Source: a virus
Lineage: Duplodnaviria; Heunggongvirae; Uroviricota; Caudoviricetes
IMG/VR virus record: IMGVR_UViG_3300033072_000303
Coordinates: 1-64,000 of that record
Direction: 5' to 3' (one strand)
DNA: 64,000 nucleotides
Positions 12,068 through 30,689 of this stretch are shown in pieces. How positions within the stretch are numbered: the stretch's first letter is position 1; every line of letters starts with the position of its first letter. The translations under genes and the position numbers were made by a program. The notes beneath the pieces were generated by a model, which saw only the letters and a program-made list of their open reading frames with translations, ran no database searches and was not told the origin of the DNA.

Positions 12068-12084
12068 TGAATAAAAATAAACTA

Positions 12085-12117
12085 GAGGGCTTATTGTAGC
12101 CCTCGTGCTTATTTTTA
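12085..12117 (+). terminator. Rho-independent terminator
   Basis: GAGGGC (12085-12090), loop TTATTGTA, GCCCTC (12099-12104), then GTGCTTATTTTTAT. Confidence 0.55.
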
Positions 12118-12242
12118 TCTCACTAAGCCTTACCCGTCGCCAGACATTAATGAAATGACCTACTCAAGGAAGTTTCATTAGAGTTAATATACTTGTATGT
12201 GTATATTGATTCTACTGAAATTTAAAAAAAAAAGGATTAAAA

Positions 12243-13217: not shown

Positions 13218-13432
13218 CAGTATTGATATACCTACTTGGAGTAATGTGTGTATTTATGATAATCTATTCATTTAATAAATCTAGTTCAGCTTACTATTAT
13301 AAATACGATTTATATGAGACAGGAATTGGGGCTGTATTAAGTTGGGTAGCAGTAATAGTGCTATTACTATTAATATTTGAAGCTAAATACAAATTTTTTG
13401 AGTCTTTAAATGATAAGTTTAAAGGAGAATAA
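13211..13432 (+). CDS. Small membrane protein
   Basis: 73 aa with two hydrophobic helices. Confidence 0.4.
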   Translation: MLAVLIYLLGVMCVFMIIYSFNKSSSAYYYKYDLYETGIGAVLSWVAVIVLLLLIFEAKYKFFESLNDKFKGE

Positions 13433-15523
13433 ATGATATTAGAAAAAGACTTACACGATGTTGAAAGTATAGGTTTTGCTAGTACTAAAGTTGCTGAAAT
13501 AAAAGCTACACCTCAAATGCTAAGAATGCTTAGCTCTGGTATATACTCTGATAAGATAGCAGCCTTTATAAGAGAACTTAGTACAAATGCTTATGATGCA
13601 ATGGTAGAAAATGGTACAATAAGGGACAAAACATTTTATGTTCATTTGCCAACAAAACTTGAGCCTTGGTATTCAATTAGAGATTACGGTAATGGGCTAA
13701 GTAGTACTGGTATGGAAACTAATTTCTCTAATTTTGGTGATGGTACAAAAGCTGAGTCAAACGCTTATAACGGTGCATTTGGGTTAGGTTCTAAGTCACC
13801 TTTAAGCTACGTTAGAGATTTTACAATAACAAGTTATCATAAAGGTACTAAAACATTTTACAACTACGGTAAAAATGATGAAGATGTACCTATGCTTAGT
13901 ACCGCGTATAGTATACCATCAGATGAACCATCTGGATTAGAAATACAAATTGCTATACAGCAAAATGACATACCAGAAGTACTAAGAAAAGCTGAGTTAG
14001 TTTATAGGTACTTTGATAAAAAGCCCGATACAAATGTAACTATAGAGTATCATAAACTTGAAAAAATCCTTTCAGGTGATGATTGGTTTTTAACTACAGG
14101 TGATAAAACTGGTAGCTACGTTTCCACAAGTACCCCTACTAGAGTAGTTATGGGGAACGTAGCTTATCCTATTACTGGTGCTAGTGGTAACATAGCATCG
14201 CTTAACTACACTCCATTAGTTATAATTGCTAATATCGGTGACGTTCAGATGACTCCGTCAAGAGAGTCATTAGAGATGACACCTAAAACTATTAAGTTTC
14301 TTGAAGATAAGTTTAAAGTCATTAAATCAGAGTTATCAACTAATATAGAAAAGACCATAGACCCTGCTTTATCTGGCTTTGATAAAGTTATAAAAGGTAT
14401 TGAAGCATTAAAGGCACTGCCGTCAACTATTAAAACGAACGTAAAAATAGGTGAATATGAGATTCCAACATCAATGTGGCAAAGTATATTTAAGATACCG
14501 AAAGATATTGTTGATTTAGTGTCTTTTAGAATACTGTGTAAAAATCCTGGGTATAGTGATAAGAAAAACTTATTGGTATCCGAAGAGTGGAGACCAAAAG
14601 AAACTAATGACTACAGCTTTTTAGTAGTGGATGACAACAAGCGTGTTGATAGTATTATAGCAGACTTAAAAGATAAGTATAAATATGTGTATGTACTTAG
14701 ATTTAGTAAAATGCCGCCTGCAGAAAAGCTTGCTACATTAGATAAATTCTTAAAATCTTGTGGTAATCCTAAATACATTAAAGCTTCGGATTACATAGCT
14801 ACCTTACCACCTTTGGTTAAAAAACCTAAGGGTACTACCACAAGTACTACTAAGCGTGTAATTGGACTAATAAAAGGGACTGAGCTACGAGTAGGACCTC
14901 AGTATCACGGACTTTGTAGTATAGCCTCTATAGTAATTCACCCTGATGATAAAGGACCGTTTTACTATGTTAAAACTTACAATGGTGAACTGCTAGACCA
15001 TAAGGGTAATAAGCTTTGGGGTTTAACTGGTATTCTATGTAATATCATTCAGAAATTTACTGATAGTCTAGGTAAAAAAGATATAACTATATTATCAGTA
15101 ACTTCACAGTACTACAATAAGGTTGAAAAAGACCCTAGATTTGAGTGTTTATTTAAAACTATTACAGATACTAAGCTTAAAATATCTTGGTTGACAGATA
15201 AAGAATCAATGGACTTTTTAAGTAAAATATCATTTAATAGTAATATTAAAAAGTATGTATCAGCTGAAAAAAGTCCAGACTTAGTAGAGTTACTTAAACT
15301 AAAAGACGAGTATGTATATAATAACTATAAATCTAGTTATGAGTACTTAAATTGTGAAATAATTCCAGCTCAGCCAGTTGATGTTGATAAGCATAAGGAT
15401 AAAGTAGAAAAATATTTGTACTTAAACCATTTATCACACACAGCTCCAGCTGAGTTAGTTGAGTTTATAATAGACCTTATAGAAGATAATAAATTAAATT
15501 TAATACCAAAGGATAAAAAATGA
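13433..15523 (+). CDS. GHKL (Bergerat-fold, Hsp90/MORC-like) ATPase domain protein
   Basis: N-box ELSTNAYDA, G1 box DYGNG and G2 box GAFGLGSKS appear in Hsp90-like order and spacing. The remaining ~450 aa are unassigned. Confidence 0.55.
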   Translation: MILEKDLHDVESIGFASTKVAEIKATPQMLRMLSSGIYSDKIAAFIRELSTNAYDAMVENGTIRDKTFYVHLPTKLEPWYSIRDYGNGLSSTGMETNFSNFGDGTKAESNAYNGAFGLGSKSPLSYVRDFTITSYHKGTKTFYNYGKNDEDVPMLSTAYSIPSDEPSGLEIQIAIQQNDIPEVLRKAELVYRYFDKKPDTNVTIEYHKLEKILSGDDWFLTTGDKTGSYVSTSTPTRVVMGNVAYPITGASGNIASLNYTPLVIIANIGDVQMTPSRESLEMTPKTIKFLEDKFKVIKSELSTNIEKTIDPALSGFDKVIKGIEALKALPSTIKTNVKIGEYEIPTSMWQSIFKIPKDIVDLVSFRILCKNPGYSDKKNLLVSEEWRPKETNDYSFLVVDDNKRVDSIIADLKDKYKYVYVLRFSKMPPAEKLATLDKFLKSCGNPKYIKASDYIATLPPLVKKPKGTTTSTTKRVIGLIKGTELRVGPQYHGLCSIASIVIHPDDKGPFYYVKTYNGELLDHKGNKLWGLTGILCNIIQKFTDSLGKKDITILSVTSQYYNKVEKDPRFECLFKTITDTKLKISWLTDKESMDFLSKISFNSNIKKYVSAEKSPDLVELLKLKDEYVYNNYKSSYEYLNCEIIPAQPVDVDKHKDKVEKYLYLNHLSHTAPAELVEFIIDLIEDNKLNLIPKDKK

Positions 15524-16500
15524 TTAAAGTAAAAGTTGGTGACACAGTTACGCTTAAAGACAATTTGTATGATACTTCGCGTGTGTTCTGTACTAAAAAG
15601 ATGAAAAAATTTGCAGGAGGCACTGTAAAAGTAACCTTTGCAGATTGTGATGGTTGTTTCTTAATCAATGGTTGTGAAGACTATTTTGATTCTGAACATA
15701 TTCTACAAAAACACAAGACGGTTAAAACTGTGAAAAAACCTGAACCAAAAGCGGTTAAAAAACCTGAAACACAGTTTGCTATGATTAGGACTGCAGAAGG
15801 TATTACTGTAATTATAGACTCGGTACCTTATATTGTAAGTAATTCACACGTTAACTATGATAAAATAGTATTATCTATAAAAGAAAAAGAATATCATAAA
15901 ATTCATGATTTAGTAAATATTAGTAAATCAATAGAGTCTTTTGGAGGTGCTAGGTTAGAAGTTAAACAAGGCGTTGTAAAATTTGATGGTAAAGAGCTGC
16001 ACGGATGTATAGTTGATAGTATATTGTCATTAATGAGGGATGGGTTTGATATTAGACCTATTGAAGCGTTTTTAGAAAACTTAAGCCTAAATCCTTCACA
16101 TAGAGCTGTGACTGAATTATATGGTTTCTTAGAATACGGTAAACTACCTATAACTGAAGACGGGTGTTTCTTAACCTACAAAAAAGTTAGAAGAGACTTT
16201 AAAGACATTCATTCTGGTACGTTTGACAACTCTGTAGGTAAAGTTTGTGAGATGCCAAGAAACAAAGTTGATGATGTTTCTACAAATACCTGCTCTACAG
16301 GTCTTCACGTTTGTAGTTATGAGTACACTAAGTCATTTGGTGGACCAGACTCTAGACTTGTTTTATGTAAAGTAAACCCAAGAGATGTTGTATCTATTCC
16401 AGTAGATTATAATAATACTAAAATGAGATGTTGTAGATACGAAGTTGTTGCAGATATCACTGGACAAGGTGATGTATTAAAAGGTAAATCATTATATTAA
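15520..16500 (+). CDS. Hypothetical protein (Cys-rich, 326 aa)
   Basis: Translationally coupled to the GHKL gene through an ATGA overlap. No motif assigned. Confidence 0.5.
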   Translation: MIKVKVGDTVTLKDNLYDTSRVFCTKKMKKFAGGTVKVTFADCDGCFLINGCEDYFDSEHILQKHKTVKTVKKPEPKAVKKPETQFAMIRTAEGITVIIDSVPYIVSNSHVNYDKIVLSIKEKEYHKIHDLVNISKSIESFGGARLEVKQGVVKFDGKELHGCIVDSILSLMRDGFDIRPIEAFLENLSLNPSHRAVTELYGFLEYGKLPITEDGCFLTYKKVRRDFKDIHSGTFDNSVGKVCEMPRNKVDDVSTNTCSTGLHVCSYEYTKSFGGPDSRLVLCKVNPRDVVSIPVDYNNTKMRCCRYEVVADITGQGDVLKGKSLY

Positions 16501-16509
16501 AGGATGTAA

Positions 16510-17622
16510 ATGCGTAAATTAGTTACAATTAGGACAGTTGATAGGTTAATTCCTATCAACGGTTGTGATAATATTTGCTTGGCTGTTATAGATGGTTGGC
16601 AAGTTATCGTTAAGAAAACAGAATTTGTAGTTGGTGATTCTTGTTTATTTTTTGAGATTGATAGTTTTATCCCAGTAAAAGATACGAGATTTCAGTTCTT
16701 AAACAAAGTTACTAAGTTTAATGGTTTTGAAGGTTACAGAATTAAAACCTTAAAAATGAGAGGCGTTTTATCTCAGGGGTTAGCACTACCATTAACTATG
16801 TTTCCAGAGATACAAAATTTCTTTTTGGAAGACTATAGCGAAGCCTTAGGTGTTGTTAAATATGATAATGCAGTTGCTGAGGCTAAAGGTGGACCTAAAG
16901 CTGGTAATTCAGCTGGTAAGTTTCCATCATTTATTCCTAAGACAGACCAAGAAAGGGTACAGAACTTAACATCATACTTTACTACGATGAAGGATGAAGT
17001 ATTTGAAGAGACTTTAAAACTAGATGGCTCTAGTTTAACTTGTTTTACAATGCCAAGACCTAGAACGTGGTTTCAAAAATTACTAAATAAAATAGGGATA
17101 AGAACTGAAATCAAACAAGAGTTTAGAGTTTGTTCTAGAAACCTAGAAATTAAAGAACCACAAAAAGAAGATGAACCTAAAACTTATGATAATAATGGCA
17201 GACCAACCACTGTAAAACAAAGTGATTACTGGACGGTTGTTAAAAAATATAACCTACACAAAAAGATTCCTTTAGGTTTTGCAGTGCAAGGTGAAATGAT
17301 TGGTCCTAAAATTCAAGCTAATCACGAGAAAGTGCACGACCTCGAGTTTTATGCTTTTGACGTGTATGATATAGGTGAATCAAAATACTTGTTACCTCAC
17401 GAAAGAAGAGAGTTTTGTGCTACTTATGATATTCCTCATGTACCTGTTGTTTCGCAAGGAATAAAACCATTTAATATGAGTTTAGAAGAACTTTTAACTC
17501 ACGTTGAAGGAGAGTCTATGAATGCTGGAACAATTTCTGAGGGTAGAGTGTATAAACATATATATAAAGACATCAGTTTTAAAGTTATTAGCAATAGTTA
17601 TTTATTAAAATCAGAAAGGTAA
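16510..17622 (+). CDS. RNA ligase (Rnl, DRB0094/Rnl5-like family)
   Basis: The N-terminus MRKLVTIRTVDRLIPINGCDNICLAVIDGWQVIVKKTEFVVGD..FFEIDSFIP is typical of PF09414-type RNA ligases. Nucleotidyltransferase motif I is present as KLDGSS. Confidence 0.6.
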   Translation: MRKLVTIRTVDRLIPINGCDNICLAVIDGWQVIVKKTEFVVGDSCLFFEIDSFIPVKDTRFQFLNKVTKFNGFEGYRIKTLKMRGVLSQGLALPLTMFPEIQNFFLEDYSEALGVVKYDNAVAEAKGGPKAGNSAGKFPSFIPKTDQERVQNLTSYFTTMKDEVFEETLKLDGSSLTCFTMPRPRTWFQKLLNKIGIRTEIKQEFRVCSRNLEIKEPQKEDEPKTYDNNGRPTTVKQSDYWTVVKKYNLHKKIPLGFAVQGEMIGPKIQANHEKVHDLEFYAFDVYDIGESKYLLPHERREFCATYDIPHVPVVSQGIKPFNMSLEELLTHVEGESMNAGTISEGRVYKHIYKDISFKVISNSYLLKSER

Positions 17623-17625
17623 AAT

Positions 17626-17916
17626 ATGAGAACAAATAAAGTTAAAGTTTTAGATAGAACAAAAGTTCAAGAAGTTATTAAAGAGAACAAAGGGAAATTC
17701 TTTAGTGCTGTGTTCACAAAGGTAGACAATACTGAAAGAATGATTCACGGTAGAACAGGTGTTAAAAAATACCTAAAAGGTGGTAAAAATAACGTACAAA
17801 AACCTAGTAATTCTTTACTTAGTATTTGGGATAGAAGGGCTGAGGATTACAGAAGCTTGAATATCAAGACGATGTCTAGCTTAACGTTAAGAGGTGTAAA
17901 GTATAGAATTGTATAA
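17626..17916 (+). CDS. Hypothetical basic protein
   Basis: 96 aa, coupled to the RNA ligase gene. Confidence 0.45.
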   Translation: MRTNKVKVLDRTKVQEVIKENKGKFFSAVFTKVDNTERMIHGRTGVKKYLKGGKNNVQKPSNSLLSIWDRRAEDYRSLNIKTMSSLTLRGVKYRIV

Positions 17917-17931
17917 TATACCTTAAATTAT

Positions 17932-17953
17932 GCTTAAATTATGGTATTTAAGC
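17932..17953 (+). terminator. AT-rich hairpin (weak terminator)
   Basis: GCTTAAAT, loop tatggt, ATTTAAGC, then ATATATT. Confidence 0.3.
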
Positions 17954-17979
17954 ATATATTAAGTTAAAGTACATTTCCT

Positions 17980-18055
17980 TTAAGTTAAGTTTAAGCAGAA
18001 CTTGGGTATACTATCTTTACCGCTGAAAGGGAGCTAAACCTATTATATAGCTAGT
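17980..18055 (+). promoter_or_regulatory. Conserved promoter-like intergenic element, copy A
   Basis: 76 nt ttaagttaagtttaagcagaacttgggtatactatctttaccgctgaaagggagctaaacctattatatagctagt. It is 94% identical to copy B. It carries TTTACC..(19)..TATTAT and a TGGGTATACT extended -10-like motif, 37 nt before the ATG at 18093. Confidence 0.45.
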
Positions 18056-18092
18056 AGTATAGTTTCGTTCTGTTAACATTATAAGGATAATT

Positions 18093-18416
18093 ATGAGTAG
18101 TATAGAAGATGTAGTAGTAGAAGAGTTAGAAGACTCTTTAGAGTTAAGATTTGGTAAGTATAGAGTTAGAAGATTAGACGCGTACAATATTGTAGTAGAA
18201 GAAATGAGGATTACTCAGACTGGTGAAAATAAAGGTTCAGAATATCCTGTAAATATAGGTTACTATAAAAGACTGTATAATGCACTTGAAAAAGTACTCC
18301 ACTTTAATTTAGAAGCTAAAGCCATAAAAAGCTTACCAGATGTTATAAGTGCTTTGAAAGAAGCTGAAAAGACTCTTTATAAAGAGTTAGAAACTAAATA
18401 TAAAAATATAATATAA
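18093..18416 (+). CDS. Hypothetical protein
   Basis: 107 aa. RBS TAAGGATAA upstream. Confidence 0.45.
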   Translation: MSSIEDVVVEELEDSLELRFGKYRVRRLDAYNIVVEEMRITQTGENKGSEYPVNIGYYKRLYNALEKVLHFNLEAKAIKSLPDVISALKEAEKTLYKELETKYKNII

Positions 18417-18424
18417 GGACAAAA

Positions 18425-18817
18425 ATGGATAATTTAGAATTTGTAGAAAAGGCATTAAGGACTGAAAGTTCTTCTTTTAAACCACTAGTATCTCCAGATG
18501 GTACACAATATAACACTGAAAGACTATTACATGCTGCTTTAGGTATGCAGACAGAAACTGCAGAGTTCTCTGACGCATTAAAGAAAGCTTTGTTCTATGG
18601 TAAACCATTAGACGTAACAAATCTATGTGAGGAGCTTGGTGACTTATTCTGGTATATGGCTATTGCTGTAAACGAGTTAAAAACTACGTTTAATAAAGAA
18701 CAAGAGAGAGTAATCGCTAAACTTGAGTTAAGATATCCTGATAAGTTCTCAGAGGAAAAAGCAGAGAATAGAGACTTAGAAGCTGAAAGAGCTTTATTAG
18801 AGAGTCATAATGATTGA
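18425..18817 (+). CDS. MazG-like nucleotide pyrophosphohydrolase
   Basis: All-alpha NTP-PPase pattern with acidic ladders: LLHAALGMQTETAEFSDALKK and EELGDLFWYM. Confidence 0.55.
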   Translation: MDNLEFVEKALRTESSSFKPLVSPDGTQYNTERLLHAALGMQTETAEFSDALKKALFYGKPLDVTNLCEELGDLFWYMAIAVNELKTTFNKEQERVIAKLELRYPDKFSEEKAENRDLEAERALLESHND

Positions 18818-18937
18818 TAAAGTTAAAGAGTTTTATTCTAAATTAAATAAACCAGTAGAAGTTACTGGTTTAGATATGGTGTATATCTACTTGGGTTTAA
18901 CTTTGTTATATTTCAGTCAAGCAATTAAAGGATAATT

Positions 18938-19516
18938 ATGATAGTACTAATTCACGGTAAAAAGAGAAGTGGTAAGGATACTTTAGCAGGTATCCTCAAA
19001 GAGTTAGAGCCGAGGTTAACAGTTAAGTCTTTCGCAGGACCTTTAAAAGAGATTACTGCGAAGTCTTTTGATATATCGTTAGAAACTGTAGATTATTTAA
19101 AGAATAACGAAGATATTAAAATAGAATTCACAGACTCTAAAGAAAAGCTGTGCACTGGTAACTCAGTAAGAAACTTTTTACAAAACTTAGGTACTGAAGC
19201 TATTAAACCTATTTTTGGTAATGACGTTTGGGCTAAGTTATTAATAGAAGGTTATAATACACAAACACATTTATTAGTACCAGACTTTAGAGTTATAGAA
19301 GAGTACAATACATTAACAGATGTTTTAGGTAACGATGAAATAATTACTGTTAATATTATAAGACCTGACGCTGAAATATCTGGCGATACTCATATTACAG
19401 AACAGGGTTTAGCTAATTTTAAGTTTGATTATAGCATAGTTAATGAGGGGTCGCTTGACGACTTAAGAGCAGAAGCTACAGAATTTTTAGCGTACTTAAA
19501 AGGTACTATAAAATGA
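18938..19516 (+). CDS. Deoxynucleoside monophosphate kinase (T4 gp1-like P-loop kinase)
   Basis: The N-terminal P-loop LIHGKKRSGKDT resembles T4 dNMP kinase GVKRSGKDT. Confidence 0.5.
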   Translation: MIVLIHGKKRSGKDTLAGILKELEPRLTVKSFAGPLKEITAKSFDISLETVDYLKNNEDIKIEFTDSKEKLCTGNSVRNFLQNLGTEAIKPIFGNDVWAKLLIEGYNTQTHLLVPDFRVIEEYNTLTDVLGNDEIITVNIIRPDAEISGDTHITEQGLANFKFDYSIVNEGSLDDLRAEATEFLAYLKGTIK

Positions 19517-19665
19517 GTATACTGCAAGATTATTATGATAAAGCTGTAATAGGCTTAAAATTATTTCACGAACATAACTTAGAAATGAGAATCAACTTTT
19601 ATGAGTTTCTAGGTATAGTATGTGTTGCTGAAGTTATATCAAGTATATTTAGATAAGGATTAAAA

Positions 19666-20163
19666 ATGGATAAGAACATAAAAGCATTACAATTAAGATA
19701 TAGACTATACGGATTACCTTTGGATTGGTTTGACTGTACATTTGATAATACTGGTTTAAGTAAACCTGAAGCTGATAGGCTAAAAGGTGCTTTTAGTGTT
19801 CTTAGACGAGGTTCTGTATGTTATGTTCAAGGAACTGCAGGACCTATCGCTAATCAGTATTTAGAGATGGGGTTAATAGTTAGAGGAGTAGACGCTTCTA
19901 TATATATTAGTGACCCTTTTGATAAAGAAGAAAAGAAAGGTTTACCAGATAACGCAGATGTTGTATTTATATATAATTGTTATGAGGGCACAACACAATT
20001 ACCTTTAGTACAAAAAGTGCTTAAGAAACTTATTAATAGTTTTGGTGGTGGTACTATGATTGTGTTATGTGGTGATGCTTTAGGGCGAACATTTAGCAAG
20101 GATTACTACCAAGTACAGAATACTTGTAGTATACCTAAGAAAAAGGAGGAAAACTGGCTTTGA
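19666..20163 (+). CDS. Hypothetical protein
   Basis: 165-aa ORF with RBS AAGGATTAAAA upstream. Confidence 0.45.
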   Translation: MDKNIKALQLRYRLYGLPLDWFDCTFDNTGLSKPEADRLKGAFSVLRRGSVCYVQGTAGPIANQYLEMGLIVRGVDASIYISDPFDKEEKKGLPDNADVVFIYNCYEGTTQLPLVQKVLKKLINSFGGGTMIVLCGDALGRTFSKDYYQVQNTCSIPKKKEENWL

Positions 20164-20369
20164 ATATAATAATAAAAGAATTAGAGGGTATTGCTACGTT
20201 TACCCAACAAGACGGTAATATTATTGATTTTAGAAATATAAATGAACATATATTTATTATAGATAGAGGATTAAAAACACTTAAACCAGAGTGTAAATAT
20301 AAAGTAACTATCGAGCTAATTACAGAAACCGTAGAGGAGTGCAATAATGAAAATACTTTGCCTGAGTGA
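20160..20369 (+). CDS. Hypothetical small protein
   Basis: 69 aa with overlapping ends. Confidence 0.35.
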   Translation: MNIIIKELEGIATFTQQDGNIIDFRNINEHIFIIDRGLKTLKPECKYKVTIELITETVEECNNENTLPE

Positions 20370-20985
20370 TACTCACACTATGCACCATAAAATACAATTA
20401 CCAGATTTATCAGATATTGACGTAATTGTTCATACTGGTGACTTTAGTAATAGTGATGAAGCAAGTACTGATGTATTTTTATGTTGGTTTGCTGACTTAC
20501 CAGTACCTTGTAAAGTCCTGGTAGCGGGTAATCACGATAAATATGTTATGCACTACAACGATAGATTTAAAATAAAATGTGCTGTATTAGGCATAGAGTA
20601 TCTACAAGACTCTGGATGTGAAATTAATGGCATTAAATTTTGGGGTACACCTTGGGTTAATCAGTTTTATAACTGGGCGTTTATGATGTACGAAAAAGAC
20701 TTAAGTAAAGTTTATAAGTTAATACCTAAAAACACCGAGATTCTACTGTCCCACGGACCAGCTAAAGGTATACTAGACTTTGTTGATAGAGTAGGTGGAG
20801 GTAATGTTGGAGCTATGACGTTAAAAGAGCGTTTAGCTAAACTGCCTAAACTGAAATACCACATCTTTGGTCATATCCACGAGGGTTATGGTATTTTAGA
20901 TACTGGCAGCTACATAGCAGTAAATGCTTCTTCTGTTACAGAATTATATAAACCAGTTAATCAACCTATAATAATAGAGGTGTAA
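20347..20985 (+). CDS. Calcineurin-like metallophosphoesterase
   Basis: Metallophosphoesterase motifs are in order: LSDTH, HTGDFS, AGNHD, SHGP, GHIHEG. Confidence 0.6.
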   Translation: MKILCLSDTHTMHHKIQLPDLSDIDVIVHTGDFSNSDEASTDVFLCWFADLPVPCKVLVAGNHDKYVMHYNDRFKIKCAVLGIEYLQDSGCEINGIKFWGTPWVNQFYNWAFMMYEKDLSKVYKLIPKNTEILLSHGPAKGILDFVDRVGGGNVGAMTLKERLAKLPKLKYHIFGHIHEGYGILDTGSYIAVNASSVTELYKPVNQPIIIEV

Positions 20986-23300
20986 TGAAAAATATAGTAC
21001 AAGCACAACAAACAGGTCTTTTATGGTTTTTAAAAGATAGCTTAACACAAGAGCAACAAGACAGGATTAAAACATACTATACGTATATTAACCCTAAAGA
21101 CCAAGATAATATTTTTAGTACCTTTATAGAGCTAAAAGATAAGATTGGAGTCCCTTATGGAGATAAAGATAAAATTAGAAACTTACTCCAAGTTGAACTA
21201 GAGGTTCAAGATAACAGGATATCCCCTAAGTTTAAAAAGAAAAAAGTTTCTAAGCTTAAATTACGAGACTATCAAGAGCTTGTTATGAAAGATATAATGA
21301 CATTTATAAATAACAATGGAACATCATTTAATTTATCTGGTGAACCTGGTTGCGTTGATAAAGACACAGAGTTTTTATCACTAGATGGTTGGAAGAAAAT
21401 ATCAGAGTACAAAGAAGGGGATTTAGTAGGTACTTATAAAGATGGTATAGTTGAGTTTGAGAAACCTTTAACTTATATCGTTAAACCTTGTGATAAGTGG
21501 ATTAATTTGTATTCTGGTACTAAACACATAGCACAACTTTCAGAAGAGCATAGAGTTGTTTATAAGACCTCTAAAGGTAATATGGCTATAAAGACTGCTA
21601 GTAACTTATTACAAGATAAAAATAGAGTAAATTTAATCACAAATGCTAATGGTAATAATTTAAAAGGTATAGACTTAAGTGATGACTTAATTAGATTACA
21701 ATGTGCTATCGCAGCTGATGGTACTAAGTTACCACAACCTAATAAGTTTAGACTTAATCTTAAAAAGCAGCATAAAATTTCAAGATTGAGAATATTACTA
21801 AAAAATTGTAAAATAGACTACACAGAGTCATTTAGTAATGTTACTGGATACACAGTATTTTATTTTTATGTACCTGATAGACTAGTTAAAAGTCTCCTAC
21901 CTTTTTATAGTTGTAATACTAGACAACTTAAAATCATAGCAGAAGAAGTTTTATTATGGGATGGCTCACAATCACAACGTACTTTTTATAGTACTATAAA
22001 AGAAGAGGCTGACTTTGTTCAATACTGTTTTACGTTACAAGGATATACTGCTAGTATGGTTATTGATGATAGAATAGGAGAACAGCAGGGTAAATACACA
22101 AGAAAGAGTAAAACATACGAGGTTAGACTAACCAAAGATAGTTCTATAGCTTTAAATTTTAAATCTGTTGGTAGATGTCCAGACACGATATCAGAAGTTC
22201 CTGCTGAGCCTAATGATTTAAAATACTGCTTTACAGTGTCATCTGGTATGTTCTTTATTCGTAAAAATTTAAAAGTACATGTTACTGGTAATTCAGGGAA
22301 AAGTTTCATGTTAGCAAATATATTAGCAAATCTTGGAACTAAAACCCTTATTATTGCTCACTTAAGTCAACTAACAAAACAGTTAGCAAAAGAGATAGAA
22401 GCAGTTCTTGGGTATAAACCTCAGATATTAGATAAAGACACAAAAGAGTTAGCTGATATTAATATAGCGACTTCTCAACTTATATCTAAAAATCCTGATT
22501 TATGGTACCTTATAAAGAAAGGTATAGGTTGTATAGTTATAGATGAAGCAGAAACTCTAGCATCTTTAAGTACATTAAGAATTGTACAAAGAGCTCACGC
22601 TAAATACCATATATTTATATCTGCTACATTCACTAGGTCAGTAGACCATAGAACTGAGGCTTTAATAGATTTTGCTGGACCTAACGTGTTTACACTTAAA
22701 AACCCTGCTCTGTTAAAACCACAAGTTATAACAGTTCAATGTTCAGAAACTTTTACAGCGCCTATGGATACAAAGTTATATAACTTAGCACGAGGTAGAT
22801 TTTATAAACGTGACTCTATATCTGATAAAGTTTTGTTAATTACTAAAGCATCGTTAAGAAAAAATAGACAAGTGCTGATAGCATGTGATGTAGTAGAACT
22901 ACAGCTTAAGTTAAAAGACTTATTGACAGACATTGGTATTAAGTCTGAATGTATTAACTCTGGTACTAAAGCGTCTTTGAGAGATTCTGCGATGGTAGAC
23001 TTTGATAATGGTGACTTACAAGTATTAATTGGTTTTGGTACACTAAATGCTGGTTTAAGTATACCTAAGATTAGTACTATTATAAGAGTCGCTACACCCA
23101 GTTCACAAGAAAAATTAGAGCAACTTATCGGTAGAGCACGAAGAGACTTTGATGGTAAAGACGGAGCATTTGTTATAGACCTTATGTTTCAAGGGTTTAA
23201 CAATGATAGTCGTTTAAAGTTATATAAAAAGAAACGAAGACAAGATGATTGGAAACTTAATCAAACAACTTGGGACGAGTTTGAAAGGAAGATAAAATGA
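20985..23300 (+). CDS. SF2 (DEAD/DEAH, UvsW-like) helicase interrupted by an intein
   Basis: Extein motifs are RDYQ, a Walker A rebuilt as GEPG|SGKS across the insert, VIDEAE (motif II), ISATFTR (motif III) and IGRARR (motif VI). A 314-aa insert starts with Cys and ends with Asn before a Ser at +1. Confidence 0.65.
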   Translation: MKNIVQAQQTGLLWFLKDSLTQEQQDRIKTYYTYINPKDQDNIFSTFIELKDKIGVPYGDKDKIRNLLQVELEVQDNRISPKFKKKKVSKLKLRDYQELVMKDIMTFINNNGTSFNLSGEPGCVDKDTEFLSLDGWKKISEYKEGDLVGTYKDGIVEFEKPLTYIVKPCDKWINLYSGTKHIAQLSEEHRVVYKTSKGNMAIKTASNLLQDKNRVNLITNANGNNLKGIDLSDDLIRLQCAIAADGTKLPQPNKFRLNLKKQHKISRLRILLKNCKIDYTESFSNVTGYTVFYFYVPDRLVKSLLPFYSCNTRQLKIIAEEVLLWDGSQSQRTFYSTIKEEADFVQYCFTLQGYTASMVIDDRIGEQQGKYTRKSKTYEVRLTKDSSIALNFKSVGRCPDTISEVPAEPNDLKYCFTVSSGMFFIRKNLKVHVTGNSGKSFMLANILANLGTKTLIIAHLSQLTKQLAKEIEAVLGYKPQILDKDTKELADINIATSQLISKNPDLWYLIKKGIGCIVIDEAETLASLSTLRIVQRAHAKYHIFISATFTRSVDHRTEALIDFAGPNVFTLKNPALLKPQVITVQCSETFTAPMDTKLYNLARGRFYKRDSISDKVLLITKASLRKNRQVLIACDVVELQLKLKDLLTDIGIKSECINSGTKASLRDSAMVDFDNGDLQVLIGFGTLNAGLSIPKISTIIRVATPSSQEKLEQLIGRARRDFDGKDGAFVIDLMFQGFNNDSRLKLYKKKRRQDDWKLNQTTWDEFERKIK
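21351..22292 (+). mobile_element. Intein with LAGLIDADG homing-endonuclease domain, inserted in the helicase P-loop
   Basis: The N-terminus is CVDKDTEFLSLDGW..EGDLV (Hint block A), with GTKH in block B. Two LAGLIDADG-like motifs are present: LIRLQCAIAADGT and IIAEEVLLWDGSQ. The C-terminus is KVHVTGN|S. Excising it restores GEPGSGKS. Confidence 0.55.
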
Positions 23301-23728
23301 AACTATATGACGAAATACAATCAAAAGATACTATGTATAGTAGCTTCCCAATAAAAGAAACTATGCTAACAGAAGGTAAAACGTACTCTGTAATTTATGT
23401 TGATGGTGGTAAGTTTGCGTTATTTGACGATAACAACCATCATATAGAGTTTTGGGATGTAGAATTTGATGAATACTTTACAAGTGTTACAGAAGATTTT
23501 AATAATCTAATAAAACATCTGGAAATAAGTTGTAAGTTGAATAAAAATATACCTATTAAAATGTATGATTATGTGTTTAAAAATTACAAGAGTTTTAATA
23601 TGATTTATACAAAACTAGAAAATAGAAGCGTAGAAAAATCTTTTGATTCTATAATAATTAAAGACACAGCATATAGTACGAAATTAACTAGCGAAGAACT
23701 TCTAGCTAAATTAAAGGAAACGATATGA
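23297..23728 (+). CDS. Hypothetical protein
   Basis: 143 aa. ATGA-coupled on both sides. Confidence 0.45.
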   Translation: MKLYDEIQSKDTMYSSFPIKETMLTEGKTYSVIYVDGGKFALFDDNNHHIEFWDVEFDEYFTSVTEDFNNLIKHLEISCKLNKNIPIKMYDYVFKNYKSFNMIYTKLENRSVEKSFDSIIIKDTAYSTKLTSEELLAKLKETI

Positions 23729-24783
23729 TAAAAGATAAAATAAAAGAATTAGAGATTGCTCACGATATCAGAGTTATATACTTGATAAAAAGCGGTTCAG
23801 CCCTATATGGTACTAATTCAGATAGTTCTGATACGGATTATATGGGTATTTTTATACCTAGTGCTAGGTCAGTAATGCTGAAAAAAGACCTAGAACATAT
23901 ATGTCTAACTACTGGTGAAGCTAACTCTAGAAACTCTGCAGATGATGAAGACTTACAACTATGGAGTATTTATAAATTCCTACATCTGGTAAAGAAAGGT
24001 GAAACTGGTGCGTTAGATTTATTATTTAGTTTTAACGCTAAACACTCATCTGAAATACACGTAATAAACGACACAATGTACACAGATACGATAACAGAAA
24101 ATATACCTAAGCTTGTATCAAAAAACTTACAAGCTTTTGTTGGTTACTGCCTAGGACAAGCTAAAAAGTACAATATAAAAGGTGAAAGGTATTCTGAAGT
24201 AGAAGTCTTCTATAGAGAATTTAAAGAACTTGAAGTAAAGACTACTAAAAGTTCTTTACATACTATACATAGGACACTAGAAGATATAATAGATAAGGCT
24301 AGGTTTAAATACATTAAGTTAGTAAGGGCAAGAGGACCAAAAAGGTTTACAGAAGAAGATATTTGGTACATTGAAATACTAGGCAGAAAACACGCTTTAG
24401 ATATCTCTATAGCAGAATTCACAGCTCGTATAGACAAACTATTCAACTCTTTTGGAGCAAGAGTTATAGCCGCAGCTGACGGTGTAGACAATAAAGCTTT
24501 AAGCCACGCTACAAGAGTTATCTTAGAGTGTAAAGAGTTACTAGAAAAAGGTTATATTACATTCCCATTACCATCTGCTGAGTTTATTAAAGAAATAAAA
24601 TATCATAAAGACTTAGTTAATGGTACTCCAGAAAATCCTGGATTAACTTTAGAAAGTATTATGGTTTTATTAGAAAGAACTTTAGATGATGTTAATAGGT
24701 TACTAGAAGATTCAGAGTTACCTGATAAAGTATCAGAGGAATTAATAACAGAAATGTTAATAGAAATAATGGAGATAGTATGA
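23725..24783 (+). CDS. Pol-beta-superfamily nucleotidyltransferase (minimal NTase fold)
   Basis: SGSALYGTNSDSSDTDYMGIF fits hG[GS]x(9-13)Dh[DE]h. It is ATGA-coupled to the CCA-adding enzyme gene. Confidence 0.45.
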   Translation: MIKDKIKELEIAHDIRVIYLIKSGSALYGTNSDSSDTDYMGIFIPSARSVMLKKDLEHICLTTGEANSRNSADDEDLQLWSIYKFLHLVKKGETGALDLLFSFNAKHSSEIHVINDTMYTDTITENIPKLVSKNLQAFVGYCLGQAKKYNIKGERYSEVEVFYREFKELEVKTTKSSLHTIHRTLEDIIDKARFKYIKLVRARGPKRFTEEDIWYIEILGRKHALDISIAEFTARIDKLFNSFGARVIAAADGVDNKALSHATRVILECKELLEKGYITFPLPSAEFIKEIKYHKDLVNGTPENPGLTLESIMVLLERTLDDVNRLLEDSELPDKVSEELITEMLIEIMEIV

Positions 24784-26093
24784 TGTTTAACACACCGAAT
24801 GTGTATGTTGTAGGTGGTGCTGTAAGAGATATTCTTATGGGTGTACAACCTAGAGATATAGACTACGTTGCAGTAGGTTTAACTGCACAGCAACTAATAG
24901 ATGATGGTTTCGTTCCTATAGATGCTGAATTCCCTGTTTTCCTTGACCCTAATGATAACTCAGAAGTAGCTTTGGCTCGTAGAGAAAAAAGCACTGGTAA
25001 AGGTTATAAAGACTTTACCACTGACACGTCTGATGTAACTTTAGAAGAAGATTTAAGAAGACGTGACTTAACAATTAATGCTATGGCTATGGATTCTGAA
25101 AAAACTATTATAGACCCATTTGGAGGACAGAAAGACCTACAGTCTAAAATATTAAGGCATACTTCTGACGCGTTCTTTGAAGACCCCTTAAGAGTATTAA
25201 GGTTAGCAAGATTTCAAACTAAGTACCCAGACTTTAGGATTCATGAAAGTACTATAGAAATTGTTAAAGCAAACAAAGACTCGCTTAAAGCTTTGACTCC
25301 TGAAAGAGTACAAAAAGAAATGTATAAAGCTTTAGAGTACAAGTACCCTAGTTTGTACTTTAGAACACTAGAGTTTTTAGGTGTTTTGGATTTAGTTCAT
25401 CCAGAACTTTATGATATGAAGCAATGTATTCAAAAACCTACACATCACGCAGAAGGTGACGTTTTTCTACACTCTATGATGGTATTAGATGAATGCGCTA
25501 AGTTATCTAAGGATGTTAACACTAGATTAGGAGCACTTTACCACGATATAGCAAAACCTATATGCGATGTTAAAAAACAAGGTTTTCATAAAGGTCACGA
25601 TGGTATTAATGTAGTACAACCTTTAGTACAAGAATTAAAAAATAGGTATAAGCTTCCTAATAAAGCTGAGAAGCGTATTGTCCAAGGTGCTTTATTTCAT
25701 ATGAAGCTACACAAATTAAAAGATATGAATTCTAGTACTATTGCAAGTATGTTTAACGATAAGTTCTTTCCAAAAACTAAAGAAGATTTAATTCAGTTAC
25801 TATGTATAAGCGTAGCTGATTCAAGAGGTAGAATCACAATCGGGTATGATAAAGAGGAAGTAAATGTTGATGCTATAGTTAATACTTTTAACGCTATTAA
25901 GGCGTATAGCCCAAAAGCTGAAATTGAAGAATATAACAAAAGACATCTTGATGATGGTAAAACTGCTAATCCAGAACTGATTAAACAAATGATTCATAAA
26001 TACTCTATTAAGTGTGTTGACGCTTGGTTAAGACCTCATTATACTATATCTAAAGATAAACAAGATAACTATACTAAACATCTCTTAAGTTAA
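24780..26093 (+). CDS. cca: CCA-adding tRNA nucleotidyltransferase with HD domain
   Basis: The class II head is VVGGAVRDILMG..RDIDYV. The HD domain is present as HHAEGDVFLHSMMVLD and LYHDIAKP. Confidence 0.75.
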   Translation: MMFNTPNVYVVGGAVRDILMGVQPRDIDYVAVGLTAQQLIDDGFVPIDAEFPVFLDPNDNSEVALARREKSTGKGYKDFTTDTSDVTLEEDLRRRDLTINAMAMDSEKTIIDPFGGQKDLQSKILRHTSDAFFEDPLRVLRLARFQTKYPDFRIHESTIEIVKANKDSLKALTPERVQKEMYKALEYKYPSLYFRTLEFLGVLDLVHPELYDMKQCIQKPTHHAEGDVFLHSMMVLDECAKLSKDVNTRLGALYHDIAKPICDVKKQGFHKGHDGINVVQPLVQELKNRYKLPNKAEKRIVQGALFHMKLHKLKDMNSSTIASMFNDKFFPKTKEDLIQLLCISVADSRGRITIGYDKEEVNVDAIVNTFNAIKAYSPKAEIEEYNKRHLDDGKTANPELIKQMIHKYSIKCVDAWLRPHYTISKDKQDNYTKHLLS

Positions 26094-26160
26094 GTTTAAG
26101 CAAACTTTCGGTAAACTATCTTTACCGCTGAAAGGGAGCTAAACCTATTATATAGCTAGT
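26085..26160 (+). promoter_or_regulatory. Conserved promoter-like intergenic element, copy B
   Basis: Same 76-nt element as copy A, with an identical 3' 45 nt. It overlaps the cca stop and ends 39 nt before the ATG at 26200. Confidence 0.45.
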
Positions 26161-26199
26161 TACTAGCTAATTTTCTAAAAATAATTTATAAGGATAAAT

Positions 26200-27561
26200 A
26201 TGACTCTTTCTATAAGTACTATCTGTAAAATCCTACAAGGGCTAATAGATACAAAAGGTACAAATGATAAAGAAACTTACTTATCTAATGTATGTAATAA
26301 TCCAGAAGTTAAACATCTATTAACTATACTGTTAGATTCTAAGTATACACTAGGTATAAAAAAGTTAGGAGATATTAAAGTGTCTTCTGATAAAACAATA
26401 AGGAATTTTGATGAACTGAAACAACTATTAGATACACTAAATTCTAGTAATATAAATGACTCTTTAAGAGAGCAAGTTATTAAGTTTTTAGGCGGGTGTA
26501 CTAAAGAAGACCAAAGCATCTTAAAAGGTATATTCCAAAAAACCTTAAAATTAGGTGTTACTAGTAAAACGTTCTCAAAAGTATTTAAAGGAGTGATTAA
26601 AGAACATCCTATCGCATTAGCAAAAAGTCCTACTGAAGCAGTACCGCCAATACCTTGTATAGTTAGTACTAAGTACGATGGTATTAGGTACACACAAGTA
26701 AAGGTTGTAGTAAATGAAGATAACTCAGTTGATATAGGTACTGCTCTTACTAGAGACCGTAATGTAATGAGATTTAAAAGGATTGAGAACGGTATTAAAC
26801 AGTTACTTAATAACCAAGTTGGTGAATGGGTTATAGATGGTGAACTAGAAACATTAGATGAAGACTTCGATAAAATCCAAGGAGTAGTTAGCTCTAATAT
26901 AGATAACAAGGTATATGAAGATGGAAATAACCTAAAGCTTACTGTATTTGATATTATTAGATATTCTGATTATATTGGTGAAACTAAATCTAAACCACAA
27001 TCTGAAAGACTAAAAGATTTAAGCAGGTTGTTCATAATAAATAAACCAACTGGTTTAGTGGAAGCTGAACATATAACTGTGTACTCACTAGAAAAGATTA
27101 AAGAACTTACTGATGAAAAAATTAATAAAGGGCTTGAGGGTACAATTATTAAAGACCCAAAAGCAAATTATAAAAAAGGAAAAACATCAGCTTGGATTAA
27201 ACAAAAAGCTATAAATGACTGCACATTAAAATGTGTTGGTGTTACTATATCTGACAATAACAAAAGGGCTGGTAAAGTTGGTGCTTTATGTATGGAGTCA
27301 AGTGATGGTTTAATTAAAGTTAATGTAGGTTCTGGGTTGTCCGACGACTTAGTTGAATTATATACAAAGACACCTCCTATTGGTAAGTTCTTTGATGTAC
27401 TTTTCAACCAAGTTTCTCAGGCAGAGGATTTACAAATGAGTTTAAGGTTACCTAGACTTAAAGGAGCTAGAATTGATGTTGTTGAAGCTGATAGCTTTGA
27501 GAAAATAAAAGCGCAACATATTGGTGCGATGAAATTAAAAGGAGATAAAGATGAAGATTAA
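26200..27561 (+). CDS. ATP-dependent DNA ligase
   Basis: Motif I KYDGIR, motif IV EGTIIKDP and motif V WIKQK, with a T7-ligase-like overall layout. Confidence 0.75.
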   Translation: MTLSISTICKILQGLIDTKGTNDKETYLSNVCNNPEVKHLLTILLDSKYTLGIKKLGDIKVSSDKTIRNFDELKQLLDTLNSSNINDSLREQVIKFLGGCTKEDQSILKGIFQKTLKLGVTSKTFSKVFKGVIKEHPIALAKSPTEAVPPIPCIVSTKYDGIRYTQVKVVVNEDNSVDIGTALTRDRNVMRFKRIENGIKQLLNNQVGEWVIDGELETLDEDFDKIQGVVSSNIDNKVYEDGNNLKLTVFDIIRYSDYIGETKSKPQSERLKDLSRLFIINKPTGLVEAEHITVYSLEKIKELTDEKINKGLEGTIIKDPKANYKKGKTSAWIKQKAINDCTLKCVGVTISDNNKRAGKVGALCMESSDGLIKVNVGSGLSDDLVELYTKTPPIGKFFDVLFNQVSQAEDLQMSLRLPRLKGARIDVVEADSFEKIKAQHIGAMKLKGDKDED

Positions 27562-27823
27562 AGATTTAGTATTAATAGATTTAATAGAGGATAAAGCACT
27601 AGGTATAGCTAGTGAAGTTACTGGTACACTATATACAGCATTTGATGCTTATGATAAAGTACAATTTAATATAGATGCTGATTGTCTTAAAAAGAAGTAT
27701 AAAAGAGAATTTTATGGTAGAGCAGTAATTTTGCTCTCATTAATTAGAGAATTTAATTTAATAACTGATTCTAGATGTTATAATTTATTAAGACACATAG
27801 AAGATACATTTGGACCAAAGTAA
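27551..27823 (+). CDS. Hypothetical protein
   Basis: 90 aa. Overlaps the ligase gene end. Confidence 0.4.
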   Translation: MKIKDLVLIDLIEDKALGIASEVTGTLYTAFDAYDKVQFNIDADCLKKKYKREFYGRAVILLSLIREFNLITDSRCYNLLRHIEDTFGPK

Positions 27824-27862
27824 GGCTTAGTGCCTTACTAATAACAAAAAAAAAGGATATTA

Positions 27863-29182
27863 ATGAAAAAGGCTATGTTAATTTATGTAAGCTCTACTGG
27901 TAACGGTAAAGGTGGTAATACAGGAAATAATAACAAGTTCTATTATATTGAGCTAAAAGAATCAGGTGATGTGTATTTTAGGTATGGTAGAGTTGGTACT
28001 AGTGGTTCTGATGGAACAAAGCAAGGCGTTGGTCTAGCGGGTTTTCATAAGTTAATGAAAAGTAAAACTTCTAAAGGTTATGTAGAAGTTCCTTTAGACT
28101 TAGACGCAGACGTATCGTCAATAGATACTAATACTTCTGGTTCGGACATTATGATGATAGCATTATCTCAAATAAAGTCTGATGATGATTCTAAAGCACT
28201 TATTAAAAAACTTGTAGCACGTAATATACATAATATTACAAGTAACACAAAGATTACATTTAATGCTAGTACAGGATTATTTAAAACTCCGTTAGGTGTT
28301 GTTACTAAAGAGGGTATTGACAAAGCTGAAAGTATCTTAGATGAGCTTTCTAAGATACTTGCGAGACCTACTCTTGATTCTAGTTATATAACATACGAAG
28401 TGGATATTAGAAATTACTCTGAACAGTATTACTGTATCATCCCAACCACTGTTGATAACTTAAGAAGTATCTACTCACACATTTATAACAAAGATGCTTT
28501 ATCTAAACAGTATGACATTTGTTCTGCGTTAAGACAGAGCATAGATATTTTAGATAAAGATAAGCTTAAAGCTATACAAGCCGCTCAGGCTGACACAAGT
28601 ATTCCAGTACTGTTTAATACATCTTTAGTGAAGCTTACTGATAGTAAAGAGTTCGATAGAATAGAAAGGTATTTTGAGAAGTCTAAAAACTCACAACACG
28701 GTCGTACTACTTCTAAAGCTAAAATTAAAAATATATATTGTATAAATATAAAATCAGATGATGATGCGTATAGACACGATTTAACTAATCAGATGGAGTT
28801 ATGGCATGGTACTAAGGTAGTTAACATCTTAAGTATATTAAAGTCAGGTCTGTTAATGCCAAAGTATAGTCCAGGTTCTGTTACAGGTTATATGTTTGGA
28901 CAAGGTTTATATTTTTCTAACCAATCATCTAAGTCATTAAATTACTGTGATGGTATGTACTGGAATAACTCGAATAGGAGTGATAATTTTATCTATATGT
29001 TTGTTGCTAATATAGCTATGGGTAACTACCAAGTACCTAAAGGAAGTACATCAAAATTACCTGATAATGGTTATGACTCTTATTGGGCACAGCCTGGTAA
29101 GTCTGGTATAATGAATGACGAAATGATTGTGTTCAAAAATGAACAAATACAATTAAAGTACTTATTAGAAATAGAGGTTTAA
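27863..29182 (+). CDS. Poly(ADP-ribose) polymerase homologue (WGR domain plus PARP catalytic domain)
   Basis: The N-terminal WGR-like segment reads KFYYIELKESGDVYFRYGRVG. The C-terminus ELWHGTKVVNILSILKSGLLMP..GYMFGQGLYFSNQSSKSLNYC..NDEMIVFKNEQIQLKYLL aligns with PARP1 ELLWHGSR..GYMFGKGIYFAD..SANYC..YNEYIVY. The H-Y-E triad is intact. Confidence 0.75.
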   Translation: MKKAMLIYVSSTGNGKGGNTGNNNKFYYIELKESGDVYFRYGRVGTSGSDGTKQGVGLAGFHKLMKSKTSKGYVEVPLDLDADVSSIDTNTSGSDIMMIALSQIKSDDDSKALIKKLVARNIHNITSNTKITFNASTGLFKTPLGVVTKEGIDKAESILDELSKILARPTLDSSYITYEVDIRNYSEQYYCIIPTTVDNLRSIYSHIYNKDALSKQYDICSALRQSIDILDKDKLKAIQAAQADTSIPVLFNTSLVKLTDSKEFDRIERYFEKSKNSQHGRTTSKAKIKNIYCINIKSDDDAYRHDLTNQMELWHGTKVVNILSILKSGLLMPKYSPGSVTGYMFGQGLYFSNQSSKSLNYCDGMYWNNSNRSDNFIYMFVANIAMGNYQVPKGSTSKLPDNGYDSYWAQPGKSGIMNDEMIVFKNEQIQLKYLLEIEV

Positions 29183-30431: not shown

Positions 30432-30689
30432 ATGCTACCGTACAAGGAAGTGTTAACTATACACGAAGATACAGAAGGAGTGTATAAAAAGATGTCTGGG
30501 TCTGGGTATACTATAACAGGTGTGGCTAAAGAATACCTTTTACACGCAGCTCTTATGTTTATACGTAATGATAATAATGATTATTACTGTGTAAAAAATA
30601 GAATAACTGGTGTCACAGGACCAATGACAATAGCTGAAGTGGATAAACTACAAAAAGAATATTTCAATAGAAGGGGTCTAAATGGTTAA
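30432..30689 (+). CDS. Hypothetical protein
   Basis: 85 aa. Overlaps the DNA polymerase gene start. Confidence 0.4.
   Translation: MLPYKEVLTIHEDTEGVYKKMSGSGYTITGVAKEYLLHAALMFIRNDNNDYYCVKNRITGVTGPMTIAEVDKLQKEYFNRRGLNG

Follow-up and report, generated by a model that had tools for sequence, protein, structure and literature searches.

Positions 1 to 64,000 of the IMG/VR virus record IMGVR_UViG_3300033072_000303 (this whole stretch of 64,000 nucleotides is referred to as the window) derive from a large tailed phage and have a GC content of 32%. Between positions 23297 and 26093 lie three open reading frames (ORFs), the second and third of which encode nucleotidyltransferases (NTases) of two different families, an RlaP-type enzyme and a CCA-adding enzyme with an HD domain. 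The identity of these enzymes, the recurrence of the pair in other phages and its probable place in a set of genes for the repair of RNA ends are described here. The three genes are:

23297-23728, + strand: ORF1 (orf143), 143 aa, a small clade-specific protein with SH3/Tudor-like beta-barrels
23725-24783, + strand: ORF2 (RlaP), 352 aa, a Pol-beta nucleotidyltransferase of the RlaP family (PF10127, T4 NrdC.11-like), predicted RNA 3'-end adder
24780-26093, + strand: ORF3 (CCA/HD), 437 aa, a class II CCA-adding tRNA nucleotidyltransferase with a C-terminal HD phosphohydrolase, the E. coli-type "multifunctional CCA addition/repair" architecture

An earlier note on this DNA had described the three frames as a coupled triplet, and the frames and their ATGA start/stop overlaps (at 23297, 23725 and 24780, all three junctions) are indeed present. 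Overlaps of this kind probably lead to co-translation of the ORFs. Across the plus-strand junctions of the window, 4-nucleotide overlaps occur at 13 of 68, ten of them as ATGA, and an overlap of some kind occurs at 32 of the 68. Because 4-nucleotide overlaps are so common, three ATGA overlaps in a row are unremarkable; the coupling is generic for this genome and reflects ordinary phage gene packing.

Two nucleotidyltransferases of different families

The match of ORF2 to PF10127 (RlaP) extends over residues 2-105 and scores 63.6 bits (E=3e-17) against a cut-off of 23, while phrog_388 matches residues 13-349 at 6.6e-61. The NrdC.11-type proteins of T4-like phages are ~33% identical to ORF2 (1516 phage records). 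Across 42 homologs, G24, S25, D36, D38, D74, D76 and D98 are invariant, and the Pol-beta NTase signature, hG[GS] together with three catalytic aspartates, is found as G24-S25, D36-x-D38 and D74/D76. In the AlphaFold2 (AF2) model D76 opens the strand 75-81, and the third ligand would be either D74 or D76. The separate Pol-beta NTase recognized in the earlier note is thus borne out, and its family is RlaP, acting on RNA 3' ends. The motif given for it is present with a different spacing, GS-x10-DTD and not GS-x12-DTD, and the description of the enzyme as minimal does not hold: in the AF2 model (pLDDT 87.6) the NTase domain is followed by a helical C-terminal domain of ~240 aa, whose long helices include those at 229-275 and 309-329 and whose final helix spans 338-348. 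For PfRlaP, a Pseudomonas RlaP, the published crystal structure is described as an N-terminal NTase domain and a C-terminal helical domain whose terminal helix packs back on the NTase.

Comparison of ORF2 with PDB sequences returned nothing meaningful. When the AF2 model was compared with the PDB by Foldseek, kanamycin NTase, ANT(4') and Hailong HalB were retrieved, with E values of 5e-3 to 5e-2 and template modelling (TM) scores of 0.2-0.3. An aminoglycoside NTase was rejected as the identity of ORF2, since these matches are weak and reflect the shared NTase core only, against a strong PF10127 profile; the family to which the 352-aa protein was assigned is RlaP and not an unrelated, aminoglycoside-type NTase. 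Many database records name its homologs "thioredoxin, phage-associated", but Pfam reports PF10127 only for ORF2, and the label appears to be a propagated annotation.

What the family does was described in a December 2025 preprint for two Pseudomonas enzymes, PfRlaP and PaRlaP (PMC12776372). Both add one or two nucleoside monophosphates, of any base, to RNA 3'-OH ends in a Mn2+-dependent reaction, and neither DNA nor protein is labelled. The two enzymes favour the 3' end of a cleaved-tRNA mimic and partly rescue aminoacylation of a tRNA short of one anticodon-loop nucleotide, and RlaP was proposed by the authors to be an antidote to nucleotide-excising ribotoxins such as RloC (PMC12776372). The name RlaP comes from the linkage of the family to RNA ligases. 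Analogous to the Pseudomonas enzymes, ORF2 is predicted to add nucleotides to RNA 3'-OH ends.

ORF3 carries the Pfam domains PolyA_pol head (PF01743; 1.1e-20, 74.7 bits), PolyA_pol_RNAbd (PF12627; 1.1e-11, 44.7 bits) and HD (PF01966; 5.9e-7, 30.2 bits against a cut-off of 22). It is matched over its full length by phrog_2244, "tRNA nucleotidyltransferase" (3e-109), and among PDB sequences it matches CCA-adding enzymes (1.3e-25). Among NCBIfam models ORF3 scores highest, at 337.8 bits, with NF008137 ("multifunctional CCA addition/repair protein"). An equivalog would need 451 bits, so that ORF3 is a divergent phage member and not an NCBI equivalog. The CCA models nevertheless score far above pcnB, at 89.8 bits, and the A-adding model, at 64.3 bits. 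We take the class II motifs to be A (GGxVRD...DxD), B (RRD), C, D (EDxxR, the nucleotide-selecting template) and E. The corresponding segments of ORF3 are GGAVRD(12-17), DID(26-28), RRD(94-96), DPFGG(112-116), EDPLR(134-138) and R176/E180/K183, and the His/Asp ligands of its HD domain are H223, H255-D256, H270, H273, H307, H311 and D347. In an alignment of clade members with Vibrio and Sinorhizobium phage enzymes, motifs A-E and the HD ligands are all invariant. Homologs occur in 508 phage records, with top phage identities of 38-42%.

By these matches ORF3 is an ordinary, complete, phage-borne CCA enzyme of the E. coli type, and its predicted activity is the addition of CCA to tRNA 3' ends. 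This agrees with the bacterial-type CCA-adding enzyme with an HD domain that the earlier note had read from GGAVRD...DID. The HD domain of the E. coli CCA enzyme reportedly has phosphodiesterase/phosphatase activity, in work of Yakunin et al. from 2004. Of the two roles that had been suggested for ORF2 as a partner of this enzyme, the addition of nucleotides other than CCA is compatible with RlaP biochemistry. A division of labour between a CC-adder and an A-adder was rejected, as motifs A-E of class II are all present in ORF3 and ORF2 falls outside class II, in another NTase family.

RlaP and class II nucleotidyltransferases across phages

The linkage of the two genes was examined in IMG/VR, in 80 loci fetched around CCA homologs and 51 fetched around RlaP homologs (flanks ≤10 kb; loci are designated below by L numbers). 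Hidden Markov models (HMMs) were run on six-frame ORFs of the fetched loci, and RlaP was detected by HMM; a single-sequence tblastn search had missed gp104 of phage KLEP7. The scan for ligases covered Rnl5-type ligases only. Clustering of the RlaP-bearing loci at 60% identity gave 42 lineages, and in 18 of these a class II NTase lies within 10 kb. The distance is below 1 kb in 12 of the 18, where uniform placement over 10 kb would lead to ~10%; the binomial P of ~1e-8 is a rough test and the comparison is approximate, with clusters that are not phylogenetically independent, loci of differing length and CCA- and RlaP-anchored loci pooled.

Three arrangements were observed. RlaP precedes the NTase in the clade of the window, L088/L093/L141, L090/L091 and L131; the NTase precedes RlaP in KLEP7, L042, L046, L086, L107 and L129; and the two genes are divergent in L089 and L092/L094. 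The partner of RlaP in several lineages is a class II NTase of 205-295 aa that consists of head and neck only, with motifs A-E and without body, tail or HD. Such head-and-neck-only NTases lie beside RlaP at:

L088, 10854-11537
L093, 10924-11550
L141, 6972-7595
L091, 11476-12201
L089, 4575-5465, - strand
L092, 3968-4855, - strand
L107, 9190-10008

These short proteins may be minimal CCA-like enzymes that rely on a partner for tRNA binding. As judged from the loci sampled, RlaP and class II NTases are tightly linked in many independent phage lineages. A tight, recurrent pair of this kind, including the head-only partners, was not found in the accessible literature (Burroughs and Aravind, 2016, lies outside that scope), and neither was the clade-specific SH3-like ORF.

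In a megablast search of 50,697 phage records the 2.8-kb region found no match, and the top identity of the DNA polymerase among phage records is ~37%. On these comparisons the phage is a novel large phage, of a clade without a close cultured relative. IMG/VR was scanned by pattern for close relatives of ORF1 and of ORF2 and yielded none; the relatives used here came from the protein database and from Logan/ENA contigs. RlaP homologs at 59-78% identity are found on metagenomic contigs that share the gene order of the window, in which Rnl-WYL_2-MazG-DNMK-MPP-helicase-orf14x-RlaP-CCA-DNA ligase is conserved (MPP, metallophosphoesterase). In a 107-kb contig the order reads rIIA-rIIB-x-Rnl-WYL_2-...-MazG-DNMK-...-MPP-...-helicase-...-orf147-x-RlaP-CCA-DNA ligase-...-PolA. 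The RlaP/CCA junction in L002 is overlapping.

The first gene of the supposed triplet behaves differently from the other two. In every clade relative examined, orf143 lies 5' of RlaP, either directly or with one small ORF between them, and it is absent from every other RlaP-CCA locus examined outside this phage clade. Small ORFs also lie between CCA and RlaP in L042, L046 and L086, and these show no homology to orf143 or to one another. orf143 is a clade-specific SH3-like protein and a putative accessory, and the triplet does not stand as a unit, this member being restricted to the clade and missing from all other RlaP-CCA loci examined.

Among the carriers is the isolated Pseudaeromonas phage KLEP7 (L005, OM654377.1), with the order Pth2 ... 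CCA - RlaP (gp104, noted "nrdC.11") - small ORF - metallophosphoesterase. Its Pth2 peptidyl-tRNA hydrolase gene lies 1 kb upstream of the CCA gene. The CCA gene itself (4995-6239) is annotated as two coding sequences, gp106 and gp105, ~70 nucleotides apart, which a frameshift, an error in sequencing or a true split of the gene could explain. L027 has the order ThyX-RlaP-Rnl5-MPP-x-x-CCA, and there RlaP abuts the ligase directly. A metallophosphoesterase is found near RlaP/CCA in KLEP7, L027 and L141.

Neighbouring genes and genomic setting

The window also encodes an NAD salvage pair, rIIA/rIIB, a PolA-type polymerase, ribonucleotide reductase, PhoH, DnaB, SbcCD and tail fibre genes. Four genes upstream of the three ORFs are of interest for RNA repair or for synteny:

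16510-17622, + strand: Rnl5-type (DraRnl/NgrRnl-like) ATP-dependent RNA ligase, predicted to seal 3'-OH/5'-P ends
17626-17916, + strand: small WYL_2 (Sm-like SH3 barrel) protein, directly 3' of the RNA ligase
20347-20985, + strand: calcineurin-like metallophosphoesterase, candidate 3'-phosphate / 2',3'-cyclic phosphate healer
20985-23300, + strand: SF2 helicase (ResIII/DEAD + Helicase_C) with a 314-aa intein-like insertion, assigned by Pfam and synteny

Both the RNA ligase and the calcineurin-like phosphoesterase to which the earlier note had pointed were recovered. The ligase matches PHA02142 OB (PF21189) at 8.2e-31, RNA_ligase (PF09414) at 1.1e-23, phrog_968 at 1.2e-91 and, in the PDB, the Naegleria gruberi RNA ligase 5cot at 1.6e-60; its TIGR02306 score of 147 bits is just short of the cut-off of 151.15. 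It lies 6.1 kb upstream of RlaP on the same strand, an arrangement kept in the 107-kb relative. A ligase of the 3'-OH/5'-P type is compatible with the products of RlaP, and this enzyme is the likely ligation partner in the repair set. The WYL_2 match of the next gene (1.8e-5) is slightly under the gathering score, and the gene also follows the ligase in the 107-kb relative; its product is a possible RNA-binding accessory, and its membership in the repair set is uncertain. The metallophosphoesterase matches Metallophos (4.8e-14), phrog_547 and phrog_1649, and it is kept in the relatives L001 and L002.

From 20347 to 26093 the genes for the metallophosphoesterase, the helicase, orf143, RlaP and the CCA enzyme overlap in one unbroken array. 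No terminator-like site was found within it; the first, a pattern match only, lies at 26153-26169, just 3' of the CCA gene. The helicase is a syntenic neighbour whose stop overlaps the start of orf143. Its insertion (approximately residues 123-436, roughly nucleotides 21351-22292) falls in the Walker A motif (GEPG | C...GN | SGKS) and is absent from the L001 and L002 orthologs, which are 89% and 80% identical elsewhere. The first residue of the insertion is Cys and the last is Asn, followed by Ser, as in inteins; the penultimate residue is Gly and not His, and Pfam did not report an intein or Hint domain in the insertion.

Some further features of the window are recorded as observations in their own right. 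The PolA-type polymerase is a single ORF of 903 aa (30682-33393) in the window, and in relatives (L003, 7211-10669; ERZ22666135 contig) it is split by an HNH_3 ORF (671 aa + HNH + 200-246 aa). Just 3' of the DNA ligase gene, at 27863-29182 (+), lies a gene for a PARP-like protein that combines WGR, PARP regulatory and PARP catalytic domains (PARP 2.2e-30); the genome also encodes nicotinamide phosphoribosyltransferase and phosphoribosyl pyrophosphate synthetase (184-3009). No PARP-family gene was called in the matching stretch of the 107-kb relative. The tRNA-like elements mentioned in the earlier note come down to a single ARAGORN call in the window, at 7973-8071 (+), a 99-nucleotide tRNA-Met with anticodon CAT. 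Its cloverleaf fold has an acceptor stem of 7 bp and a long variable arm, and the 3' end ACCA is encoded, but the fold z-score is only -1.9, the Rfam search of the window found no family, and the Rfam tRNA model is silent here even at E≤1. The call represents either an unusual tRNA, class II-like and with the anticodon CAU, or a false positive.

Proposed function and comparison with known systems

Judged from family membership and gene order, the region probably forms part of an RNA end-repair gene set, acting mainly on tRNA, in a novel large phage. The catalytic parts all belong to described families, and their joint presence in large phages is already catalogued: RlaP, ATP-dependent RNA ligases, CCA-adding enzymes and calcineurin/HD phosphatases have been placed in jumbo-phage RNA repair (PMC7824862). 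The repair toolkit against host ribonucleases envisaged in the earlier note matches these published predictions. During infection, host ribotoxins or immune nucleases would cut or trim tRNAs, and 2',3'-cyclic or 3'-phosphates would be stripped by the HD domain, the metallophosphoesterase or both. RlaP would then restore one or two untemplated nucleotides at a 3'-OH end that had lost more than a clean cut removes, its target being either an anticodon-loop nucleotide, replaced ahead of sealing by Rnl5, or the discriminator, replaced ahead of the addition of CCA. Breaks in the anticodon loop would be sealed by Rnl5, and the CCA tail would be rebuilt by the CCA enzyme. The close linkage of RlaP to class II NTases suggests that at least part of the job of RlaP lies at the acceptor end, for example in restoring the discriminator after a nuclease has removed more than CCA.

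Several observations weigh against this proposal. RlaP was found within 10 kb in just 8 of the 80 CCA loci, and 24 of the 42 RlaP clusters have no class II NTase within 10 kb; as most CCA loci and most RlaP clusters are unpaired, neither enzyme strictly needs the other. In the relative L001 a DUF723 ORF (6472-7362) lies on the opposite strand between RlaP and CCA, and in L003 (1754-4011) and L004 (1836-4093) the CCA gene is split by a DUF723 ORF into a 103-aa N-terminal and a 320-aa C-terminal part. These ORFs look like insertions of a mobile element (homing-endonuclease-like), and since they separate the two genes or interrupt CCA, strict translational coupling of RlaP and CCA is dispensable. 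The characterized RlaPs are bacterial cluster-1a enzymes and ORF2 is nearest to the T4 NrdC.11 type, so that the biochemistry is carried over to ORF2 by extension. Finally, a search of the larger ORFs between 10067 and 29182 brought up no polynucleotide 5'-kinase, the only P-loop kinase there being a dNMP kinase (PF21448); the part of the genome seen therefore does not account for the healing of 5'-OH ends.

The two enzymes might have independent functions and merely share an early/middle transcription unit, their adjacency reflecting co-regulation of RNA-metabolism genes and not a shared substrate end. The CCA enzyme would in that case be a housekeeping enzyme, maintaining or maturing host or phage tRNA 3' ends for translation, and RlaP would work only with Rnl5 on anticodon-loop breaks. 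This alternative is regarded as rather unlikely. It would account for the naming of RlaP after its ligase linkage and for the proposed restoration of anticodon-loop nucleotides before ligation. CCA enzymes, moreover, occur in 508 phage records and mostly without a nearby RlaP (72 of the 80 IMG/VR loci), a DUF723 insertion can part the two genes, and the whole gene array is tightly packed. A separation of less than 1 kb in 12 of 18 lineages, reached in three arrangements, exceeds however what shared regulation of a broad gene class would lead one to expect, and several lineages pair RlaP with a 205-295 aa head-only NTase where the scan, made for Rnl5-type ligases only, detected no ligase.

It is highly improbable that ORF2 nucleotidylates some other target (a small molecule, a protein or DNA ends), in the manner of aminoglycoside NTases, MNT antitoxins or HalB-like NTases, and that its adjacency to CCA is incidental. 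Foldseek indeed gave generic NTase-fold matches only, many homolog records carry the "thioredoxin, phage-associated" label, and bacterial (Sulfurovum-type) homologs with ~40% identity stand alone among unrelated genes. The PF10127 assignment is, however, well over threshold and is all that Pfam gives, the fold matches are weak and limited to the shared core, the label seems propagated, and the RlaPs tested so far labelled RNA and not DNA or protein; the genes to which it is linked (class II NTases, RNA ligase, metallophosphoesterase) likewise point to RNA ends. The poorest prospects of all belong to the view that dense gene packing in phages put the three coupled genes together by chance and that as a unit they mean nothing functionally. 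The 4-nucleotide overlaps at 13 of 68 plus-strand junctions and the status of orf143 as an ORFan of one clade are in keeping with it, but it holds for the triplet and orf143 only. The RlaP-CCA pair is kept across the clade (59-78% RlaP identity) and recurs in unrelated lineages, so that for the pair chance packing is largely refuted.

The preferred reading, an RNA end-repair set, also has a narrower form, which is speculative and on balance doubtful: RlaP and the class II NTase might be dedicated to a two-step rebuilding of tRNA tails against immunity that cuts the tail including the discriminator. RlaP would restore one or two nucleotides upstream of CCA, after which the CCA enzyme would add CCA; phosphorylated ends would be healed by the HD domain or the metallophosphoesterase, and orf143 might serve in this clade as a tRNA- or partner-binding adaptor. 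HepT-type HEPN toxins are said to remove 4 nucleotides, as reportedly found by Songailiene et al. in 2020. Cas12a3 shortens tRNAs by cutting them 2-4 nucleotides in from the 3' end, as far as the discriminator; according to its discoverers, tRNAs of viral origin offer no way around this cleavage, and viral countermeasures are unknown (PMC12851939). If the two-step idea were true, the RlaP-CCA pair would represent the "yet unknown means of resistance" that viruses would need against Cas12a3 (PMC12851939). Immunity directed at tRNA is now seen as widespread (PrrC, RloC, PARIS, retron effectors, Cas13 and Cas12a3), and a pair that joins an enzyme adding one or two nucleotides to RNA 3'-OH ends with a CCA/HD enzyme is an obvious candidate against tail clipping. 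The pair occurs in cultivable carriers such as Pseudaeromonas phage KLEP7. The locus also gives a concrete genomic setting to the phage branch of the RlaP family, a branch that has been little studied and has T4 NrdC.11 among its members, and even if the specific idea fails it is a clean example of a phage RNA-repair set.

Compared with the RlaP proteins of RNA-repair operons (Pseudomonas RtcB-RlaP-RtcA, T4 NrdC.11), ORF2 belongs to the same Pfam family with the same GS...DxD...D signature, combines, in its AF2 model, an NTase with a helical C-terminal domain, and has an RNA ligase in its neighbourhood. Unlike in those systems, the overlapping neighbour is a CCA-adding enzyme and not a ligase, and in contrast to RtcB-RlaP-RtcA the ligase, encoded 6 kb upstream, is a 5'-P ligase of the Rnl5 type and not RtcB. 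ORF3 resembles the E. coli-type multifunctional CCA enzyme in its head, neck and body architecture, motifs A-E and HD domain, and differs from it in scoring below the equivalog cut-off and in being probably coupled in translation to RlaP.

The RNA repair repertoires of jumbo phages contain the same parts, namely an ATP-dependent ligase, RlaP, a CCA enzyme and calcineurin-like/HD phosphatases (Iyer et al., 2021, PMC7824862), as well as Pth2, which is present in KLEP7; a PNK-HAD kinase-phosphatase was not found among the ORFs searched here. That survey reported that RlaP and ligases are distributed together, and makes no mention of RlaP and CCA as an operonic pair (PMC7824862). No homolog of either member of the T4 pair Pnkp and Rnl1, which repairs anticodon loops and counters PrrC, was seen in the window (Pnkp was looked for in the larger ORFs, 10067-29182), and end healing would fall to the HD and metallophosphoesterase domains. 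The classical T4 pathway is without the nucleotide-adding steps of RlaP and CCA, though T4 carries NrdC.11; what the T4 system and the present gene set would share is the logic of healing and sealing tRNAs against host tRNA nucleases.

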